This document shows positions 1 to 44,882 of a DNA stretch of 64,000 bases, piece after piece. The stretch lies in sequence record NC_041936.1. One strand, given 5' to 3'. Position 1 is the stretch's first letter, and every line of letters starts with the position of its first letter. The DNA comes from Escherichia phage ECD7. Under the pieces are notes generated by a model that was not told the DNA's origin, searched no databases, and saw nothing but the letters and a program-made list of their open reading frames with translations. A program made the translations under genes and the position numbers.

Positions 1-386
1 ATAACGTGATGGGTAAAGCCCGTGTTATTGAAGGGGATAAAGGCGCAGGTGATAAACTTGCTGCACTGATTCGCGCTGGCTGGATTCCTGGCGTTTCATC
101 CCGTGGATTGGGTCGTTTGAAAGACTCAGGTCGCGGATACAATATTGTACAGGAAGGTTTTGTGTTGACGGTTGGTGTTGATGTTGTATGGGGTCCGAGC
201 GCACCAGATGCGTGGGTAACTCCGGTGGTTGAGTCAACGGATAGCGATTCTAGCGCGTCAGACGCACCAGAAAGCGATAAAACCGAAAAAGTGACTAACC
301 CTACAGCCTCACAACAAAACATCGTAGAATCGAATAATAGCGCGTTTATGGCGCTCGCAGAAGCGTTATCTAAACGCTATAAATAA
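1..386 (+). CDS. 21: prohead core protease gp21, C-terminal part (5' end outside window)
   Basis: ORF runs to window edge; motifs VSSRGLG and SAPDAWV resemble T4 gp21 C-terminus; followed by 22 and 23 as in T4. Confidence 0.6.
   Translation, partial: NVMGKARVIEGDKGAGDKLAALIRAGWIPGVSSRGLGRLKDSGRGYNIVQEGFVLTVGVDVVWGPSAPDAWVTPVVESTDSDSSASDAPESDKTEKVTNPTASQQNIVESNNSAFMALAEALSKRYK
378..385 (+). promoter_or_regulatory. T4-type late promoter motif TATAAATA upstream of gene 22
   Basis: exact TATAAATA about 33 nt before the ATG at 418. Confidence 0.5.
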
Positions 387-417
387 TAACGTCGTTATCA
401 ACAAGAAGGTTATAACC

Positions 418-1212
418 ATGCTTAAAGAAATGCTGCTCGAAGAAGCAAAACAGATCACCGTAGACGTTGCTCTCGATGACCTGTTTGAATCCGTCGAACT
501 GTCGCCGGAAGTAAAAGAAAATTTTGGTACTATCTACGCTCAGGCGGTAAAAGCTAATGCTGTTGCACTGGCAGAAAGCCACATTGAAAAAATCGCCGCT
601 AAAGCCGATGAACTGGTAGAATCAAAGGTCGAAGAAGCACGCACCGAGATTGAAACCAAACTGTACGAAGATGCAGATAAATTCCTGAATCACTTAGGCG
701 CTAAATGGCTGGCGGAAAATAAAGAAGCCGTTACCCGTAATATTAAAGCGGATCTGTGCGAATCCCTGATTGGTTCTCTGAAAGATGTTTTCGTTACTCA
801 CAATGTTGTAGTACCGGAAGAATCTGTAGACGTTGTTTCTGAACTTGACGAAGCACTCAAAGAAGAAAAAGAAAAAACCTCCGAACTCTTTGATGCCAAA
901 CTGCAACTTGAAAGCGAAATTCGTGGCATGAAGCGCGAACAAGCGATCAATGAAAGCACTCGTGATCTTTCCGATACTCAGAAAGAAAAAGTAACCGCGC
1001 TGATTGAAGGTCTGGAATATAGCGAAACTTTCGATAAGAAATTAACTGCAATTGTCGAAATGGTTGCTAAGAAAGAAGACAAACCAGCGAAGATTGAAGA
1101 ATCACTAAATACTGATGCCGACAAGCTGAATGTTATTGCAGAAGCTGTCGAAGAATCAGAGAAAAAGGCAACTGTAGATTCCGGCGTATCCCGCTACCTG
1201 AATTTCATCTAA
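418..1212 (+). CDS. 22: prohead core scaffold protein gp22
   Basis: 264 aa acidic coiled-coil-like protein between gp21 and gp23; size and position match T4 gp22. Confidence 0.8.
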   Translation: MLKEMLLEEAKQITVDVALDDLFESVELSPEVKENFGTIYAQAVKANAVALAESHIEKIAAKADELVESKVEEARTEIETKLYEDADKFLNHLGAKWLAENKEAVTRNIKADLCESLIGSLKDVFVTHNVVVPEESVDVVSELDEALKEEKEKTSELFDAKLQLESEIRGMKREQAINESTRDLSDTQKEKVTALIEGLEYSETFDKKLTAIVEMVAKKEDKPAKIEESLNTDADKLNVIAEAVEESEKKATVDSGVSRYLNFI

Positions 1213-1271: not shown

Positions 1272-2858
1272 ATGAAAACTACCAAAGAACTGATGGAAAA
1301 ATGGTCCCCGCTGCTGGAGAACGAAAAACTGCCGGAAATCGCAACTGCGTCTAAGCAGAAACTGGTTGCTAAAATTCTGGAATCTCAGGAAGCGGATTTT
1401 GCTGTAGACCCGATCTATAAGGATGAAAAAGTTGTTGAAGCATTTGGTGGCTTTATCACCGAAGCAGAAGTTGCTGGCGACCACGGTTATGACGCATCTC
1501 AGATCGCGGCTGGTCAGACTACTGGTGCAATCACCAACGTAGGTCCGGCTGTTATCGGTATGGTTCGCCGTGCTATCCCTAACCTGATCGCATTTGATAT
1601 TTGTGGTGTTCAGCCGATGAGCACTCCGACTAGCCAGATCTTTGCAATCCGTTCTGTATACGGTCCTAACCCGCTGGCATCTCAGGCGAAAGAAGCATTC
1701 CATCCGATGTATGCGCCTGATGTGTTCCATAGCTCTCTGGCTGCTAAAGGTGCAACCACTGGTTCCCCGACTGGTACTCCGTTTGCTAAACTGGAAATCG
1801 GTACTCAGATTGCATCTGGTGATATTGTTCACCACACCTTCGCAGAAACTGGTATTGCATATCTGCAAAACGTTACCGCAGACGCAGTAACCCCTACCAA
1901 AGCAGGTCAAGAAACCGCAGACGAAACTGTTATGAAGCTGATGGAAGAAGGTAAATTGGCTGAAATCGCTTATGGTATGGCTACTTCCATTGCCGAAATT
2001 CAGGAAGGCTTTAACGGTTCCAGCAATAACCCGTGGGCTGAAATGTCAATGCGTATTGACAAACAGGTTGTTGAAGCGAAATCTCGCCAACTGAAAGCCC
2101 GTTACTCTATCGAAGTTGCGCAGGATCTGCGTGCTGTACACGGTATGGATGCTGACGCTGAACTGAATGCTATCCTGGCTAACGAAGTTCTGCTTGAAAT
2201 CAACCGTGAAATCGTTGACGTCATCAACTTTACCGCTCAGGTTGGTAAGACTGGTATGACTCAGACCGTTGGTTCTAAAGCTGGTGTATTTGACCTGCAA
2301 GACCCGATCGATACTCGCGGTGCTCGTTGGGCTGGTGAATCCTTCAAATCTCTGATCTACCAGATCGACAAAGAAGCTGCTGAAATCGCTCGTCAGACTG
2401 GTCGCGGTGCGGGTAACTTTGTTATCGCTTCCCGTAACGTTGTAAACATTCTGGCTTCTGCTGATCAGGGTATCAGTCTTGCTATGCAGGGTGCTGCAAA
2501 AGGTCTGAATACCGACACCACTAAAGCTGTTTTCGCTGGTGTTCTGGCTGGTAAGTACAAAGTGTTCATCGACCAGTATGCTCGTCAAGACTACTTCACC
2601 GTAGGTTACAAAGGCGACAACGAAATGGATGCTGGTATCTACTATGCTCCGTATGTTGCTCTGACTCCGCTGCGTGCAACTGACCCGCAGTCTTTCCACC
2701 CGGTTCTGGGCTTCAAGACTCGCTATGGCATCGGCATTAACCCGTTTGCAGACAGCAAATCCCAGGCACCGTCCGCTCGCATCACCTCCGGTATGTTGAG
2801 CAAAGACAGCGTAGGTAAAAACGCATACTTCCGTCGTGTATGGGTTAAAGGTTGCTAA
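1272..2858 (+). CDS. 23: major capsid protein gp23
   Basis: 528 aa; long colinear similarity to recalled T4 gp23 (e.g. GPAVIGMVRRAIPNLIAFDICGVQPM, DAGIYYAPYVALTPLR, KNAYFRRV). Confidence 0.95.
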   Translation: MKTTKELMEKWSPLLENEKLPEIATASKQKLVAKILESQEADFAVDPIYKDEKVVEAFGGFITEAEVAGDHGYDASQIAAGQTTGAITNVGPAVIGMVRRAIPNLIAFDICGVQPMSTPTSQIFAIRSVYGPNPLASQAKEAFHPMYAPDVFHSSLAAKGATTGSPTGTPFAKLEIGTQIASGDIVHHTFAETGIAYLQNVTADAVTPTKAGQETADETVMKLMEEGKLAEIAYGMATSIAEIQEGFNGSSNNPWAEMSMRIDKQVVEAKSRQLKARYSIEVAQDLRAVHGMDADAELNAILANEVLLEINREIVDVINFTAQVGKTGMTQTVGSKAGVFDLQDPIDTRGARWAGESFKSLIYQIDKEAAEIARQTGRGAGNFVIASRNVVNILASADQGISLAMQGAAKGLNTDTTKAVFAGVLAGKYKVFIDQYARQDYFTVGYKGDNEMDAGIYYAPYVALTPLRATDPQSFHPVLGFKTRYGIGINPFADSKSQAPSARITSGMLSKDSVGKNAYFRRVWVKGC

Positions 2859-39113: not shown

Positions 39114-39590
39114 TTAATCATGACCGTGATTGGCAATGTCCGCGCGTGTCTTATCTTTGTGATTTCCTACGTCAAAGACACGATAGCCGTTTTCTCTAAG
39201 AACTTTAATCACTTCTGGGTTATCCTCAAAGACTCCGACAACTTCATCTTTATCAAAGGATTTAATTACCTCTAATTTGATGTGATAGTCTTTACGGGAA
39301 TCATTGCGACCTCTCATAAAGATTTTATCGAAACACACATCATTAGCGATCAGCCATTCCACCGTTTCTATGTAAGCATGTGAACTTCGTCCGGTGAGGA
39401 TGTAAATCAAATGCCCGTTGTCGGAAAGAGCATTAATAACACGGATTACATCGTAAATGGGGGAATCTCCCCCACATGCCTTGTTATATTCGATCCATGA
39501 CTCGACTTTATCAAGATTTTCGGTTGGCATCTTTGCTAGTCGATGTGTTGGATCTGTGATCGTAAAATCTAAATCGACAAAATATATCAT
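39114..39590 (-). CDS. HAD-superfamily phosphatase-like protein
   Basis: N-terminal DLDFTIT (DxDxT) HAD motif; coupled downstream of nrdB. Confidence 0.45.
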   Translation of the reverse strand: MIYFVDLDFTITDPTHRLAKMPTENLDKVESWIEYNKACGGDSPIYDVIRVINALSDNGHLIYILTGRSSHAYIETVEWLIANDVCFDKIFMRGRNDSRKDYHIKLEVIKSFDKDEVVGVFEDNPEVIKVLRENGYRVFDVGNHKDKTRADIANHGHD

Positions 39591-40747
39591 AGATATTTCC
39601 CGAATCGGTTGTAGTCATCGTCTGTTAAATCGGTATTAACCTGAGATACCAGATACATAATCTCTACTTCTTGCGCCGCGTTTTGAACTTCGTCAGAGTT
39701 TAACCACTTACGCATCCACGGTAAAGGATGACGACGAACACTAAACGGGCTTTTCAGTCCGGCAGCACGCATACGGGAATCTGCCAGGTATTCTACATAG
39801 GTTTTCAGAATTTCCGGTGACAGGTTAGGAATTGCCCCCATTGCGAATAAGTGGTCTACCCATTCTTTTTCTTGCTCGACAACATCCAGAAAGATTTTCG
39901 TTGCTTCGTCTTCAAGTTCTTCCGCAATCTGTTTCCACTCATCACCGTCAGCCCCCGTTTGCCATTGACGAATAATGTATTGTGTGCCTTTTAAGTGAAG
40001 TTGTTCATCACGCGCAATAAATTTCATGATCTTCGCGTTACCTTCAAGTAAACCACGTTCGGCAAAGCTGAAAGTACATGCAAAGGAAACATAGAAACGG
40101 ATTGCTTCCAGTGCATTAACGCAGTGTGCACACAGATAAATCGAAGCCATCAGATCTCGTTTTGTATCTTCAAAAAATCTTCTTGCATCATCTAATGCTG
40201 TCTGGTCGTCTCGTTCTTCCCAATAGCGGAGATCTTCTTTTGCATTCTCATACTTACGAATCCAATAAAGAACATCGTCATAGTATTGCCCGATAGATTC
40301 CGCTCGCTTCATGATAGCAGGGTTATCGATGATCTGGTCAAACTCACTAGCCGGATCAATAAAACAGTTACGCATAATGTGAGTATAACTGCGGCTATGA
40401 ATTGTCTCGCTGAATGTCCATGTTTGCAACCATGTATCGAGAGTCGGATCAGATACAATTGGACCAAATGCTGCGGACGGTGCGCGACCTTGAATAGAAT
40501 CAAGCAATGTCTGATACTTCAAGTTTTCTGTAAAGAAACGTTTTTCAACATCGCCCATATTCAGATATTGAATGCGGTCGGTTGCAAGTGAAATCTCTTC
40601 TGGACGCCAGAAAAATGACAATTGCTTTTCGATCAGTTCTTCAAATACTTGATGACGCTGAATATCATAGCGAGCGATACCCAACCCACTACCCAGAAAC
40701 ATCGGTTCGTTCATAATATCAACATGTTCGCGGTTAAATACGCTCAT
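39587..40747 (-). CDS. nrdB: ribonucleotide reductase small subunit
   Basis: 386 aa (T4 NrdB about 388); diiron-ligand style E..H pattern; position after nrdA; no intron-sized interruption. Confidence 0.85.
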   Translation of the reverse strand: MSVFNREHVDIMNEPMFLGSGLGIARYDIQRHQVFEELIEKQLSFFWRPEEISLATDRIQYLNMGDVEKRFFTENLKYQTLLDSIQGRAPSAAFGPIVSDPTLDTWLQTWTFSETIHSRSYTHIMRNCFIDPASEFDQIIDNPAIMKRAESIGQYYDDVLYWIRKYENAKEDLRYWEERDDQTALDDARRFFEDTKRDLMASIYLCAHCVNALEAIRFYVSFACTFSFAERGLLEGNAKIMKFIARDEQLHLKGTQYIIRQWQTGADGDEWKQIAEELEDEATKIFLDVVEQEKEWVDHLFAMGAIPNLSPEILKTYVEYLADSRMRAAGLKSPFSVRRHPLPWMRKWLNSDEVQNAAQEVEIMYLVSQVNTDLTDDDYNRFGKYL

Positions 40748-40762
40748 TAATTCACCTCACTA

Positions 40763-40930
40763 TCACTTTTTAACACAAAAGAACTTAGTATTTCTGTTTA
40801 TTTCGATATCCTGTTGCAACTCCTGCACGGCTTCAAAACAACTTTGATGTGATGAAAACTCTACGCTGGTAACAGTTCCTTTATTATATGACCCGACACT
40901 AACGGAAAGCAATAACCATAATGTAGCCAT
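40763..40930 (-). CDS. small protein MATLWLL... (55 aa), tandem paralog
   Basis: shares MAT(L/V)WLL...SS(V/I)EF...Q.C...F.C with the adjacent ORF; TAATG coupling. Confidence 0.4.
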   Translation of the reverse strand: MATLWLLLSVSVGSYNKGTVTSVEFSSHQSCFEAVQELQQDIEINRNTKFFCVKK

Positions 40931-41103
40931 TAGTTCACCTTCTGCTTTTCAATGCAATACAGATTCATAAAGCGTTTATTGTCTTCGCGTATAATCTCGC
41001 GAGCTTTAACGCAATCCTGCTTTGTTGCAAATTCAATGCTTGACATATTTCCGTAATTATACATTGAATTGCTTATTGCAATCAATAACCATACAGTAGC
41101 CAT
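40930..41103 (-). CDS. small protein MATVWLL... (57 aa), tandem paralog
   Basis: see paralog; hydrophobic N-terminus. Confidence 0.4.
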   Translation of the reverse strand: MATVWLLIAISNSMYNYGNMSSIEFATKQDCVKAREIIREDNKRFMNLYCIEKQKVN

Positions 41104-41270
41104 TATCCGACAACCTCAAAACATTTATCATCAGGAAGAATAGCCCATTCTACGCCGTATTCATCCTTAACGTAGTAGCAAGTCCCATCATGTCGAGCAT
41201 CATATTCATCACCGACAACAAAGCTATCAGCTAGTTCAAAATCTACAGCAACACATTTTAATTTGGTCAT
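41103..41270 (-). CDS. small hypothetical protein (55 aa)
   Basis: start at internal Met downstream of the promoter at 41303-41330. Confidence 0.4.
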   Translation of the reverse strand: MTKLKCVAVDFELADSFVVGDEYDARHDGTCYYVKDEYGVEWAILPDDKCFEVVG

Positions 41271-41302
41271 AATAAAATCCTCACTTGTTTTTGATGGTTG
41301 TA

Positions 41303-41330
41303 TTATAGCGGGGATTTCTCCCCGCGTCAA
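41303..41330 (-). promoter_or_regulatory. sigma70-like promoter with palindromic spacer
   Basis: minus TTGACG - GCGGGGAGAAATCCCCGC - TATAAT. Confidence 0.55.
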
Positions 41331-41338
41331 CACTTATT

Positions 41339-43582
41339 TTACAGCTTGCAAGATGAGCACTCGCTAGCGTCTTCCGTACCATCAGCACCATCACGCACGT
41401 TAGCGTAATACAGTGTCTTGAGGCCGTAATATTGAGCAAACAACATATCATCTAATACATCAGCAATATCGACTTTACCAGTCTTATAAGTGCTTGGATC
41501 GTAGGATGTGTTGGAACTAATCGCCTGATCTACAAACTTCTGCATGATCGCTGCCAGTGTCAGATAAGGCTTGTTACCTTTCTTGATCAGTGTCCAAAGC
41601 AGGTCAATAACATCAGCATTATTCTCTACGTTCGGAATAACCTGATTAAATTGCCCTTCTTTCGATCCTTTAACCGATACAATCCCGCGAGGCGGTTCAA
41701 TACCGTTTGTGCTGTTAGACACCTGAGAGGACGACTCACAAGGCATCAGCGCCGAAAGCGTACTGTTACGAATGCCATATTTTTTCAGGTCTTCGCGAAG
41801 TTCTTCCCAATCCATCTCATACACAGGATCAACCAGTTCATCTACTGTCTTTTTGTACCAGTCGATAGGCAGTTCACCGCGACCATAACGTGTTTCGTGC
41901 ATCAGTTCGCAAGCACCCTTCTCTTTAGCCAGTTGTACACTAGCCTTAATCAGAGCATATTGCAAGCGTTCAAACGTTTTATGCGTAAACTCGTTAGCGT
42001 CTTCATATGTGAAGAAATTATCCGCCAGATATGATGCAAAGTTAGTCACACCAACACCCAGAGAGCGACGTTTTTTGGCTGTCAGAGCTTGTTCTACAGG
42101 ATAATCCTGGTAATCTAACAGGTTGTCAAGTGCACGCACCATAACCATAGCAATGCGTTCTACTTCTTCCATATTTTCGATATCAAAGTTTCCTAAAACA
42201 TATGCTGCCAAAGTACATAGGCTGATCTCTGAATCATCACGACCCATCGGTTTTGTTGGCAGAGCAATTTCACAACACAGGTTAGATTGTTTAATCGGTG
42301 CTACATTACGAATAAACGCCCCGTGATTGTTCATGTTGTCTGTGAACGCTGGATAGATTCGACCAGTGTTAAAACGTTCAATTGCCACCGCTAAAAACAG
42401 GTCTTCGGCTTTAACACGAGTTTTACGAACACTCGGATCTTTTTCCAGTTTTTCGTAAAGCTGGCGGAAACCTTCCTCATCTCGGAAGTACAGATCCCAC
42501 AACAAGCCACCTGCAACATCTGGACTAAACAGAGTAATGTAATCCCGTTTGAGGAATCGCTCTACCATCAGGTTATTAATCTGTACGCCGTAATCAAGAT
42601 GACGAATGCGGTTATCTTCTACCCCTTTGTTGTTCTTCAACACAATCAGACTTTCAAACTCTAAATGCCACATTGGGTAATAGAGAGTCGCCGCCCCGCC
42701 ACGAATACCGCCTTGTGAACATGACTTAACGGCAGTCTGAAAATGTTTCCAGAATGGGATAACGCCAGTATGACGAACTTCACCATGCCCGATCTTAGAT
42801 CCTTCCGCACGAATCATGCCAGCGTTGATACCGATGCCAGCACGCTTGCTAATATACTTGATGATTGCATTTGCGGTTTCATTAATACCCTGCAATGAAT
42901 CATCAGATTCGATCACCACACACGAACTAAATTGGCGTGTTGGGGTACGCACACCAGCCATAATCGGAGTAGGCAGAGAAATTTGCTTATTAGCAACAGC
43001 ATTATAAAAATCAATCACATGTTCAAGTCGATTTTCTGTCTCTTCTTGATGTAAGCACATACCGATCAGCATATACGCAAATTGCGGTGTTTCAATGATT
43101 TTCTTAGTGCTGCGATCCTGAACAAGATATTTCTCTTTTAACTGCATCGCACCAGCATAGGTCATTTTAAAATCAAGTTTATGGTCGATGAATTTCTCCA
43201 GATATTCCACTTCTTCACGGGAATACTTTTGCAGAATTTCGCGATCATATTTTCCGGTTGCAATATTACGCTCAATATGGCTATAAAAATCAATAGGTTG
43301 GAATTGACCGTATACTGATTTACGAAGCGCGAACATTGCAAGGTTACTTGCTACATATTGATAATCAGGTGTTTCTACAGTAATGTTATCTGCGGCGACC
43401 TTAATCAATACTTTCTGGATATCATTGGTAGACATACCTTCTGTCAGAAGTGGTTCAACCATATCAAATAATTCATATGGGTCAACGTTATGACCTTCGG
43501 CTGCCGCTTCCAGAATTTTCATTACTTTTTCTTTTTCAAACGGAACAGTCAGACCGGAAGACTTAACAACATTTTTAATCAT
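41339..43582 (-). CDS. nrdA: ribonucleotide reductase large subunit
   Basis: 747 aa; ATP-cone N-terminus; catalytic region NLCCEIALP; C-terminal CSSCKL-type redox tail. Confidence 0.9.
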   Translation of the reverse strand: MIKNVVKSSGLTVPFEKEKVMKILEAAAEGHNVDPYELFDMVEPLLTEGMSTNDIQKVLIKVAADNITVETPDYQYVASNLAMFALRKSVYGQFQPIDFYSHIERNIATGKYDREILQKYSREEVEYLEKFIDHKLDFKMTYAGAMQLKEKYLVQDRSTKKIIETPQFAYMLIGMCLHQEETENRLEHVIDFYNAVANKQISLPTPIMAGVRTPTRQFSSCVVIESDDSLQGINETANAIIKYISKRAGIGINAGMIRAEGSKIGHGEVRHTGVIPFWKHFQTAVKSCSQGGIRGGAATLYYPMWHLEFESLIVLKNNKGVEDNRIRHLDYGVQINNLMVERFLKRDYITLFSPDVAGGLLWDLYFRDEEGFRQLYEKLEKDPSVRKTRVKAEDLFLAVAIERFNTGRIYPAFTDNMNNHGAFIRNVAPIKQSNLCCEIALPTKPMGRDDSEISLCTLAAYVLGNFDIENMEEVERIAMVMVRALDNLLDYQDYPVEQALTAKKRRSLGVGVTNFASYLADNFFTYEDANEFTHKTFERLQYALIKASVQLAKEKGACELMHETRYGRGELPIDWYKKTVDELVDPVYEMDWEELREDLKKYGIRNSTLSALMPCESSSQVSNSTNGIEPPRGIVSVKGSKEGQFNQVIPNVENNADVIDLLWTLIKKGNKPYLTLAAIMQKFVDQAISSNTSYDPSTYKTGKVDIADVLDDMLFAQYYGLKTLYYANVRDGADGTEDASECSSCKL

Positions 43583-43649
43583 ATTACCTCACTTCATATT
43601 TTAGCAGGAACAAGTTTATCCTCCATAACGGGGCTTTCGCCCCCTTTGT

Positions 43650-44882
43650 TTATACTGCCATTTGAGCGGTGATCGCTGGATGGCTTTGATAGTTGTGAAT
43701 TTTAAAGTCTTTCGGAGTCTTTGTCAATACCTCATCTAAAGATTTAAATTCCGGCAACTCAATTGTTGGTTTATCAAACGGAACACGGTTTAACTGTTCC
43801 ATAACTTGATCAAAATGGTTTTTGTAAATGTGAGTATCTCCGCCGGAGAAAATCAGTTCACCAACTTCAAGGTCGCACATTTTCGCTATGATGTGAGTTA
43901 ACAGCGCATAGCTGGCGACGTTAAAGGGCAAGCCCAAAAAGCTGTCTACGCTTCTCTGAAACCACATGCAAGATAGTTTACCTTCATTGACGTAGAATTG
44001 CACGAAAGGATGACATACACCTAATACAGCATTATGTGTTCCTTGTACGTTCCATGAGTCAATAATGATCCGGCGATCCGTTGGATTGTTTTTAATTTGT
44101 TCAATCACGTTTTGTAACTGGTCTTCCCAAATCTTCGGGCGATAGACATATTCTTCATCGTCTTTAGTGCTCGATGTGTCTACGTCCATACTAGCAAAGA
44201 TCGTGGTATCTGGTGCTAAAATATCCCCACCCAGATAATCACTATCAAGCAGATAACCGAAATAACCATCATCTACCCATTCCTGGAATCCCCACAAGCA
44301 ATATGCATCATTAACAAAATTAGATTGAGTCTTCCAGTGGTCTGCTACTAAGAATAGATTATATTCAGAATCAAACTCTTCATAACGCATACCACGCCAG
44401 ATAGCACATAAACGGTCTTCTGTTTCATTGGTTGGCGTAAAGTCTTCTACCCACGGGTGCTTAAATGTATGTGTATATTTGCTCTTAACGCGCTTAATTT
44501 TGACTTCCCCGTGTGGATGAATCGGTTTGCGTCGCCACGCCATACCATACATATTGCCAACATTATAGCCGTTGAATCGTAGCGGATTCTTTTCTTTCAT
44601 ATCAAGACAGTTGCCGCGCCAAATGTCGAAGGCTTCTTCGTCAAACCGACCGCGTGTAATTTCCTGTAAGCGACGGCGGTCAAGTGATCCCTCCATAAAC
44701 CATAGCAACTCGCCAATTACAGAGGCTGTAGCCATCTTTTTAGTGGTCAGTAATGGGAAACCCTTGCTTAAATCAATTCGCATCTCTGCGCCGAATTTAG
44801 AGAGCGTACCTACCCCCGTGCGGTCTTCACGAGGCCAGCCATTATCAAGAACATCACGCAACAGTTTCAAATATTCTTTCAT
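43650..44882 (-). CDS. td: thymidylate synthase with large internal insertion
   Basis: DRTGVGT, LLWF, RRIIIDSWN, VCHPF, QRSVDSFLGLPFNVASYALLTH and C-terminus PKDF..NY.SHP....MAV match TS/T4 Td; about 120 extra residues between MAWRRK and DQLQN. Confidence 0.85.
   Translation of the reverse strand: MKEYLKLLRDVLDNGWPREDRTGVGTLSKFGAEMRIDLSKGFPLLTTKKMATASVIGELLWFMEGSLDRRRLQEITRGRFDEEAFDIWRGNCLDMKEKNPLRFNGYNVGNMYGMAWRRKPIHPHGEVKIKRVKSKYTHTFKHPWVEDFTPTNETEDRLCAIWRGMRYEEFDSEYNLFLVADHWKTQSNFVNDAYCLWGFQEWVDDGYFGYLLDSDYLGGDILAPDTTIFASMDVDTSSTKDDEEYVYRPKIWEDQLQNVIEQIKNNPTDRRIIIDSWNVQGTHNAVLGVCHPFVQFYVNEGKLSCMWFQRSVDSFLGLPFNVASYALLTHIIAKMCDLEVGELIFSGGDTHIYKNHFDQVMEQLNRVPFDKPTIELPEFKSLDEVLTKTPKDFKIHNYQSHPAITAQMAV

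Follow-up and report, generated by a model that had tools for sequence, protein, structure and literature searches.

Between the ribonucleotide reductase (RNR) genes nrdA and nrdB of Escherichia phage ECD7 lie two very small genes of the minus strand, here named ORF-A (open reading frame A; 40763..40930, 55 amino acids, aa; MATLWLLLSVSVGSYNKGTVTSVEFSSHQSCFEAVQELQQDIEINRNTKFFCVKK) and ORF-B (40930..41103, 57 aa; MATVWLLIAISNSMYNYGNMSSIEFATKQDCVKAREIIREDNKRFMNLYCIEKQKVN). The window that we analysed is a stretch of 64,000 nucleotides (nt) of this phage (record NC_041936.1), to which all coordinates refer unless another record or locus is named. The comparisons reported below led us to favour, at a probability of roughly 55%, the interpretation that ORF-A and ORF-B encode soluble accessory proteins with two cysteines, members of the phage family phrog_5579, which would be transcribed early, would exert a cysteine-dependent binding or modulator activity and would not be parts of the reductase. 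Judged by their sequence, both are genuine, translationally coupled genes, and their codon substitution patterns show that they are coding and under purifying selection.

A preliminary description of this DNA had placed two minus-strand ORFs of 55 and 57 aa between nrdA and nrdB and had proposed that they were tandem paralogs coupled through TAATG overlaps, all of which was borne out. Aligned over their full length with BLASTP, ORF-A and ORF-B share 20 of 55 residues (36% identity, 69% positives, E=5e-15), and both match the profile of phrog_5579 at about 1e-23 (ORF-A at E=8.3e-24, with residues 2-55 on positions 1-52 of the 52 in the profile; ORF-B at E=2e-23), a kinship far beyond chance. 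The gene order on the minus strand is td, nrdA (41339..43582), a 68-nt spacer, a third small ORF of 55 aa (41103..41270), ORF-B, ORF-A, a 15-nt gap (40748..40762), nrdB (39587..40747) and a gene for a HAD_PNKP-type phosphatase. A TAATG stop/start overlap joins the third small ORF to ORF-B (GGATAATGGCT), and another one joins ORF-B to ORF-A (GAACTAATGGCT). Shine-Dalgarno-like sequences accompany these starts: AAGGTGA (40935..40941, minus strand) sits 4 nt 5' of the ORF-A start, within the 3' end of ORF-B, a GAGG is found 10 nt ahead of the ORF-B start, and GAGGTGA precedes nrdB; ribosome-binding sites are annotated at the equivalent positions in the Ec_Makalu_003 record. The region 39500..43700 matched the genomes of phages Brandy, JK32, RB49, Phi1 and about 50 others with 97-98% identity over its full length, which places the window in the genus Krischvirus, the T4-type phages that resemble RB49.

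A rare phage family with two invariant cysteines

An exhaustive search of 1.84 billion cluster representatives, using a profile of both paralogs and their orthologs (E<=1e-3), yielded 54 matches; two were repetitive artefacts and the remainder measured 42-113 aa, mostly 50-70 aa, while a second, word-indexed profile search yielded further family members. Clustered at 50% identity, this corresponds to about 50 clusters out of the 1.84 billion representatives. Among GenBank phages, tblastn found members in Enterobacter phage SDFMU_EhYP (Autographiviridae), Escherichia phage Henu7 and Pseudomonas phage Motto (both Drexlerviridae), the Erwinia jumbo phage Hallingskeid and Vibrio PS15B phages; the close alignment used to search for related loci gave a single IMG/VR locus. 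The phrog_5579 profile was matched by 34 of 37 diverse homologs. In bacterial genomes, a degenerate DNA pattern for the peptide TVWLLIAV gave 120 loci, none of which encodes a family member according to the hidden Markov model of the family. By these searches, phrog_5579, a PHROG to which no function is assigned, is found only in phages, is spread widely among them and yet is rare.

From the alignments we derived a signature comprising a length of 50-70 aa, an N-terminal xWLLxxxS strand, a YNxG turn, the pair E-F, a cysteine about six residues further on and a C-terminal cysteine followed by V or I, and the two window proteins carry all these elements. The preliminary description had pointed to two conserved cysteines, and this observation extends to the whole family: C31 and C52 are invariant, and exactly two cysteines are present in 60 of 61 members. 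With columns averaging only 27-35% identity in these alignments, W5 and L7 are conserved in at least 90%; F25 shows no variation in alignment A2 (37 sequences), whereas it varies in A4. Two candidate arrays of the domain, P0021 (775 aa, eight stretches) and P0033 (351 aa, five stretches), were discarded as low-complexity repetitive translations that lack the family signature. No Pfam entry, DUF1482 included, was matched at E<=0.1 by the window proteins or by any of 37 members, the window proteins had no NCBIfam match, and our literature search retrieved no paper on phrog_5579 or on DUF1482. Against PDB sequences, the best match of the family profile was domain 1 of CCS, at a non-significant E=0.36; as there is no MxCxxC or other CxxC motif either, the proteins do not fit the HMA or copper-chaperone type.

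AlphaFold2 modelled ORF-B, from a 35-sequence alignment, with a predicted local distance difference test score (pLDDT) of 89, all five models reaching at least 82.5, as beta(5-11)-beta(20-25)-alpha(28-41)-beta(46-52), and ORF-A, from a shallow alignment, with a pLDDT of 82 as beta(5-11)-beta(19-25)-alpha(28-39, 42-47)-beta(48-54). In these models the YNxG turn lies in the loop that joins beta1 to beta2, and beta3 ends 2-3 residues past the second cysteine. Beta1 is probably the central strand of the small sheet, because it is uniformly hydrophobic and flanked by beta2 and beta3. Since the single helix covers only one face, with W5 and L7 on one side of the strand and L6 and I8 on the other, the uncovered face is probably an interface for oligomerization or for a partner. 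A Foldseek search of BFVD retrieved the same predicted fold in phage-derived proteins of 50-65 aa (from BcepIL02, PaMx41, YuA and ISF001, and a 'DUF1482 family protein') with full-length TM-scores of 0.7-0.85; beyond the top matches, which are family members, identities were 9-28% and E values 0.03-0.3. All these look-alikes are uncharacterised, hence no functional information was gained from them.

The hydrophobic N-terminus of both proteins had been read in the preliminary description as a signal peptide or membrane anchor, a proposal that our data do not support. The strictly hydrophobic run comprises 5 residues in ORF-A and 7 in ORF-B (5-9 in 61 members, median 7), whereas the core of a signal peptide takes about 10-15 residues and a transmembrane helix about 18 or more. 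Kyte-Doolittle means over 19 residues reach at best 0.81 in ORF-A and 0.61 in ORF-B (family median 0.92, maximum 1.63), with about 1.6 as the reference threshold for a transmembrane segment. A lysine or arginine precedes the conserved tryptophan in 7 of the 58 members that bear it, and an aspartate or glutamate in 5; neither window protein, both of which begin with MAT, has any of them. Moreover, conservation within the protein is highest in this segment, and the near-invariance of W5 and L7 is unlike a signal peptide, whose sequence drifts freely; in both paralogs it was modelled confidently as strand beta1 (pLDDT of the block, 82-90). Thus, the window proteins have neither a basic n-region nor a hydrophobic core of sufficient length, and the segment does not drift freely. 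Together, these features provide a strong argument that the N-terminus is neither a signal peptide nor an anchor, and the proteins are probably soluble rather than secreted.

The alternative in which these are exported or membrane-anchored micro-proteins must nevertheless be considered. According to it, the N-terminus would be an anchor or a Sec signal peptide with its cleavage site behind the conserved S-x-G, and would precede a periplasmic fold of about 40 residues with a C31-C52 disulfide made by DsbA, aimed for example at an envelope sensor or at superinfection exclusion. A buried cysteine pair is unusual in the reducing cytoplasm, and this keeps the idea alive; given the N-terminal features described above, however, we regard it as unlikely. 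A resemblance to MzrA, the modulator of EnvZ/OmpR, did not strengthen it. The periplasmic domain of MzrA (PDB 4pwu) is alike in fold only, at 12-13% identity and with no relation at the sequence level, and its structural score is barely above those of dozens of unrelated alpha/beta sandwiches, among them many ferredoxin-like, ClpS, PII and ACT domains. MzrA has a genuine transmembrane anchor, in contrast to the run of 5-9 hydrophobic residues of the phrog_5579 family; neither sequence homology nor an N-terminal transmembrane anchor, both expected of an MzrA-like modulator, was found.

Returning to the interpretation of soluble two-cysteine proteins, the position of the cysteines is of interest. 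C31 is located four residues past a conserved serine or threonine that caps the helix; it shares with the conserved small or hydrophobic residues at 34 and 38 a buried stripe of the helix (C31-A34-L38) and would for this reason point toward the sheet. C52 is in beta3, followed by the conserved V or I, and the spacing between the two cysteines is 19-21 residues in the window proteins. The beta-alpha-beta crossover that joins beta2 to beta3 brings the start of the helix to that end of the domain at which beta3 terminates, and the thiols could for this reason be close together. That both cysteines are invariant and no third one is tolerated points to a chemical role of the pair, be it as a disulfide, as a redox couple or in metal ligation (maybe between subunits), and not to mere packing.

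Divergence and loss of the two copies

The first 30 nt of ORF-A and ORF-B have 23 positions in common. A recent tandem duplication in situ was considered and rejected, as each protein is nearer to other family members (48% for ORF-A and 51% for ORF-B) than the two are to each other (36-38%). As far as such very short sequences can tell, the duplication would be old or the copies would have been acquired separately.

ORF-B is precisely absent from phages G37-3 and FL20, where the frame of ORF-A is intact. The loss is a clean deletion of exactly one 174-nt period (L014, 1500 region; L008, 2500 region), and at the junction ATGGCTACTG is followed directly by TATGGTTATTGCTTTCC, so that the first four codons of ORF-B are fused in frame to the body of ORF-A. 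Read from these sequences, the deletion is the footprint of recombination between the near-identical 5' ends of both paralogs. Because G37-3 and FL20 retain an intact chimeric copy without ORF-B, this gene is dispensable and ORF-A can stay intact alone. In addition, all the loci surveyed outside Krischvirus contain one copy of the family each. Each paralog would then work on its own, possibly with different targets.

These data also bear on whether ORF-A and ORF-B form an obligate heterodimer, the tandem being the functional unit and the two cysteines of each protein contributing to one four-cysteine site. The genes are arranged in tandem, coupled and retained together in about 50 genomes, their 36% identity is of the kind often seen between heterodimer partners, and two plus two cysteines would give a classical tetrahedral site. 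On the other hand, every homolog outside Krischvirus is single-copy, G37-3 and FL20 manage with one intact chimeric copy, each paralog is closer to other members of the family than to its partner, and their evolutionary rates are about threefold apart (see below), which makes an obligate heterodimer quite improbable.

The slot between nrdA and nrdB and its relation to the reductase

The location of ORF-A and ORF-B, within a coupled block that ends in nrdB, invites the idea that they are accessory factors specific to the class Ia reductase, analogues of NrdH/glutaredoxin, of YfaE or of an assembly factor. More than 50 krischviruses, and also a diverged relative (contig L148), have kept them in this slot, and the invariant cysteine pair would suit such a role. 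NrdH, NrdI, YfaE and T4 NrdC are, like the window proteins, small cysteine-containing proteins encoded beside nrdA/nrdB. The window proteins differ from them, however, in lacking a CXXC motif, a thioredoxin or flavodoxin fold and any Pfam match, and in having only two cysteines. Thus, a CXXC or CXXS at helix 1, as in redoxins of the thioredoxin fold, is missing and the topology is beta-beta-alpha-beta, whereas a 2Fe-2S ferredoxin of the YfaE type would have four cysteines, not two per chain.

The genomic context of the homologs argues further against a role in ribonucleotide reduction. In a survey of about 15 loci outside Krischvirus, the homologs were always found in early, replication or nin-type regions, with no constant neighbour. 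The homolog is located between genes for a DnaB-like helicase and DNA polymerase A in Autographiviridae (L003, L021), overlaps the end of the HAD_PNKP phosphatase gene in Henu7 and Motto, directly follows or precedes NinG, near NinB/SSB, in four loci (L019, L024-L026), is near a Dam methylase gene in one (L149), and in three others (L005, L020, L027) lies within arrays of small ORFs, those of jumbo phages included. When the NrdA and NrdB proteins of the window were used as tblastn queries, neither the complete genome of Henu7 nor 15 further homolog-bearing loci gave a match, so that linkage to nrd genes is restricted to Krischvirus and to the Krischvirus-like contig L148. As homologs occur in phages lacking RNR and their neighbours vary, the position between nrdA and nrdB is peculiar to the Krischvirus genome and incidental to the family as a whole.

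The slot itself is plastic. A gene for an HNH homing endonuclease is inserted exactly between ORF-A and nrdB in G5211, G37-3 and phiS (L013, 1679..2218; L014, 1679..2218; L015, 1738..2385), at the equivalent of the window gap 40748..40762, and is absent from the window. In T-even phages the homing endonuclease gene mobE occupies the intergenic region of nrdA/nrdB, and a UAAUGA stop/start overlap joins nrdA to mobE (PMC2988022), a coupling of the same style as that of the small ORFs. Despite sharing this niche with mobE and with the HNH genes of krischviruses, ORF-A and ORF-B lack HNH or GIY-YIG motifs, measure about 55 aa and lie upstream of the insertion point of the homing endonucleases. In contig L148 (ENA k141_40510; 37..204 and 217..717) the N-terminus of NrdB is 92% identical to that of the window, whereas identity drops to 47% for the protein at the position of ORF-A, unlike what would be expected of a co-evolving partner of the enzyme; this indicates either very fast evolution of the slot or replacement of the allele. 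An upstream ORF in this contig, ending in IFFHDEVEEVK and cut by the contig end, is also TAATG-coupled. Since HNH genes are inserted and small genes are lost or replaced there, the nrdA-nrdB spacer of krischviruses behaves as a cargo slot, and ORF-A and ORF-B are, from this comparison of genomes, accessory cargo in it and not parts of the reductase. Together with the dispensability of ORF-B in G37-3 and FL20, these observations make a factor specific to RNR very unlikely.

One association with a neighbouring gene was pursued and set aside. After nrdB the window carries (39114..39590, minus strand) a stand-alone HAD_PNKP phosphatase domain of 158 aa (PF25109) without a kinase domain, and homologous phosphatase genes lie directly upstream of the micro-ORF homologs in Henu7 (L004, 2471..3004) and Motto (L006, 1971..2501). 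In the window, however, this gene is one gene away, beyond nrdB, in another locus (L018) a member of a different HAD family is five genes away, and the remaining contexts have none; we therefore treat the association as a weak, probably regional, coincidence.

Selection, transcription and annotation

The preliminary description had made its case depend on the conservation of the reading frames in related phages and had suggested estimating there the ratio of nonsynonymous to synonymous substitution rates (dN/dS); both analyses favoured the genes. Using the Nei-Gojobori method on 8-12 distinct Krischvirus sequences from the fetched loci, we obtained a dN/dS of 0.065 for ORF-B (10 genomes; variable sites at codon positions 1/2/3 = 4/0/10) and of 0.19 for ORF-A (12 genomes; 10/5/21), to be compared with 0.017 for the last 300 codons of nrdA (6/3/87). 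No stop or frameshift was found in either ORF among the 10-12 genomes compared, and ORF-A and ORF-B are present in more than 50 krischviruses in GenBank. ORF-A evolves faster: amino acids vary at 14 of its 55 codons, most of which map to the exposed face of the predicted helix and to the loop after it, versus 4 of 57 codons in ORF-B, and the synonymous diversity of ORF-A is raised as well (pS of 0.22 versus 0.15 in nrdA). That the two are chance or decaying frames without a protein product is extremely improbable: their very small size, the absence of an assigned function and of expression data, and the adjoining ORF that is decaying in several relatives speak for it, but against it stand a dN/dS well below 1, the bias of variation to third positions, intact frames, Shine-Dalgarno sequences with coupling, and the recurrence of the invariant residues in recognisable homologs from at least four further phage lineages.

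The adjoining ORF (41103..41270, minus strand; MTKLKCVAV...FEVVG; RB49ORF233c, phrog_16302), which the preliminary description had omitted, belongs to the same coupled block, has no sequence kinship with ORF-A or ORF-B and was found only in Krischvirus. Its dN/dS of 0.19 (variable sites 4/3/11) indicates purifying selection in most genomes, and it is broken in several relatives, by a stop in G37-3 and by a 2-nt deletion in FL20; in FL37 and AV108 the tblastn match is in two pieces, indicating a frameshift, and in FL04, FL38 and kaaroe only residues 11-55 were matched. From these lesions it looks like a gene being lost. The independent lesions in G37-3 and FL20, both lacking ORF-B, had suggested a functional tie between the third ORF and ORF-B; this was rejected on the tblastn results, as the same ORF is disrupted in FL37, AV108, FL04, FL38 and kaaroe, which keep ORF-B.

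The spacer between nrdA and the first small ORF contains a sigma-70-type promoter-like sequence, TTGACG-17 nt-TATAAT (41302..41330, minus strand), with 11 of 12 consensus matches, 32 nt ahead of that ORF and invariant in four aligned krischviruses, from which early transcription of the block of small ORFs and nrdB is plausible. Inside the promoter spacer, directly after the nrdA stop, there is a perfect hairpin with a 7-bp stem (GCGGGGA-GAAA-TCCCCGC, 41308..41325, minus strand). The Ec_Makalu_003 record annotates a terminator at this place and our scan for consensus terminators did not call it; the hairpin may be a terminator or an RNA-processing element and, combined with the promoter, could form an element that separates the expression of nrdA from that of nrdB.

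On these grounds we propose the following mechanism. The third small ORF, ORF-B, ORF-A and nrdB would be transcribed early from the promoter-like site just downstream of nrdA, and ORF-A and ORF-B would each be translated into a soluble beta1-beta2-alpha-beta3 mini-domain. This domain would probably associate with copies of itself, as a homo-oligomer held by the exposed sheet face, and act as a small cytoplasmic binding or modulator protein, with a host or phage protein as its target. Its activity would depend on the cysteine pair, either as ligands of a metal or cluster common to the subunits or as a redox-active dithiol/disulfide. Besides the cysteine pair buried in a reducing compartment, several points weigh against this proposal. 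Neither an experimental nor an annotated function emerged anywhere in the family, the searches of Pfam, NCBIfam, PDB sequences and the literature being empty; the strand order that makes beta1 central was deduced from topology and not from coordinates; the context survey outside Krischvirus covered about 15 loci; and the early promoter is a consensus match only, promoter-like sites in the region being no more frequent than in shuffled sequences.

A bolder version of this proposal, which we hold to be rather doubtful, is that phrog_5579 represents an undescribed class of two-cysteine mini-proteins acting as early effectors of host takeover or counter-defence, with the invariant cysteines forming either a redox-active disulfide or a metal or Fe-S site between subunits. 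Krischviruses would then direct their two diverged copies at different targets, and an arms race would account for the fast turnover of the ORF-A slot beside a well-conserved NrdB.

Two features of the records examined are worth mentioning. In Henu7, gp53 (L152, 34427..34798; 123 aa), an ORF of the head-tail module, carries the label 'putative ribonucleoside-triphosphate reductase', almost certainly a misannotation, as tblastn with NrdA and NrdB was empty in that genome. In phage Cognac, nrdB (L017, 1684..2843) is represented by two overlapping coding sequences (CDS), 1684..1911 and 1872..2843, the 5' part being out of frame with respect to the window, which is due either to a frameshift or to a sequencing error in the record.

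As for the small genes themselves, the expectation that default annotation would miss them proved wrong for Krischvirus. All three small ORFs are called in the GenBank and RefSeq records of RB49 (RB49ORF231c/232c/233c, equivalent to RB49p231-233), where the orthologs of ORF-A (RB49ORF231c, RB49p231, NP_891802.1) and ORF-B (RB49ORF232c, RB49p232, NP_891803.1) were deposited in 2003, and CDS features underlie the tblastn matches to both in nearly all of about 55 Krischvirus relatives. Identity to these orthologs is 87-98% for ORF-A and 96-100% for ORF-B, with the same position, strand, TAATG coupling and flanking genes. Thus, both genes were already known, having been annotated for more than 20 years and included in a PHROG, and the window carries another allele of them. 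By contrast, two distant homologs, each with both cysteines, have been left unannotated in GenBank, those of Henu7 (51 aa; L004, 3001..3156, equivalent to MN019128 20357..20512), which has a stop/start overlap with the preceding HAD_PNKP phosphatase gene, and of SDFMU_EhYP (56 aa; L003, 2644..2814; OQ884031).

In summary, as ORF-A and ORF-B have long been annotated, the value of this work as a discovery is small, and its additions are chiefly of use to phage annotators. The records of Henu7 and SDFMU_EhYP show that homologs have been overlooked in some phage annotations, and the hydrophobic first strand mimics a signal peptide, so that annotation based on composition could mislabel members of the family as secreted or membrane proteins. 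Furthermore, if the chemistry of the cysteine pair is functional, these proteins would offer a compact and experimentally easy model, with only 55 residues and with phages that naturally carry one or two copies.

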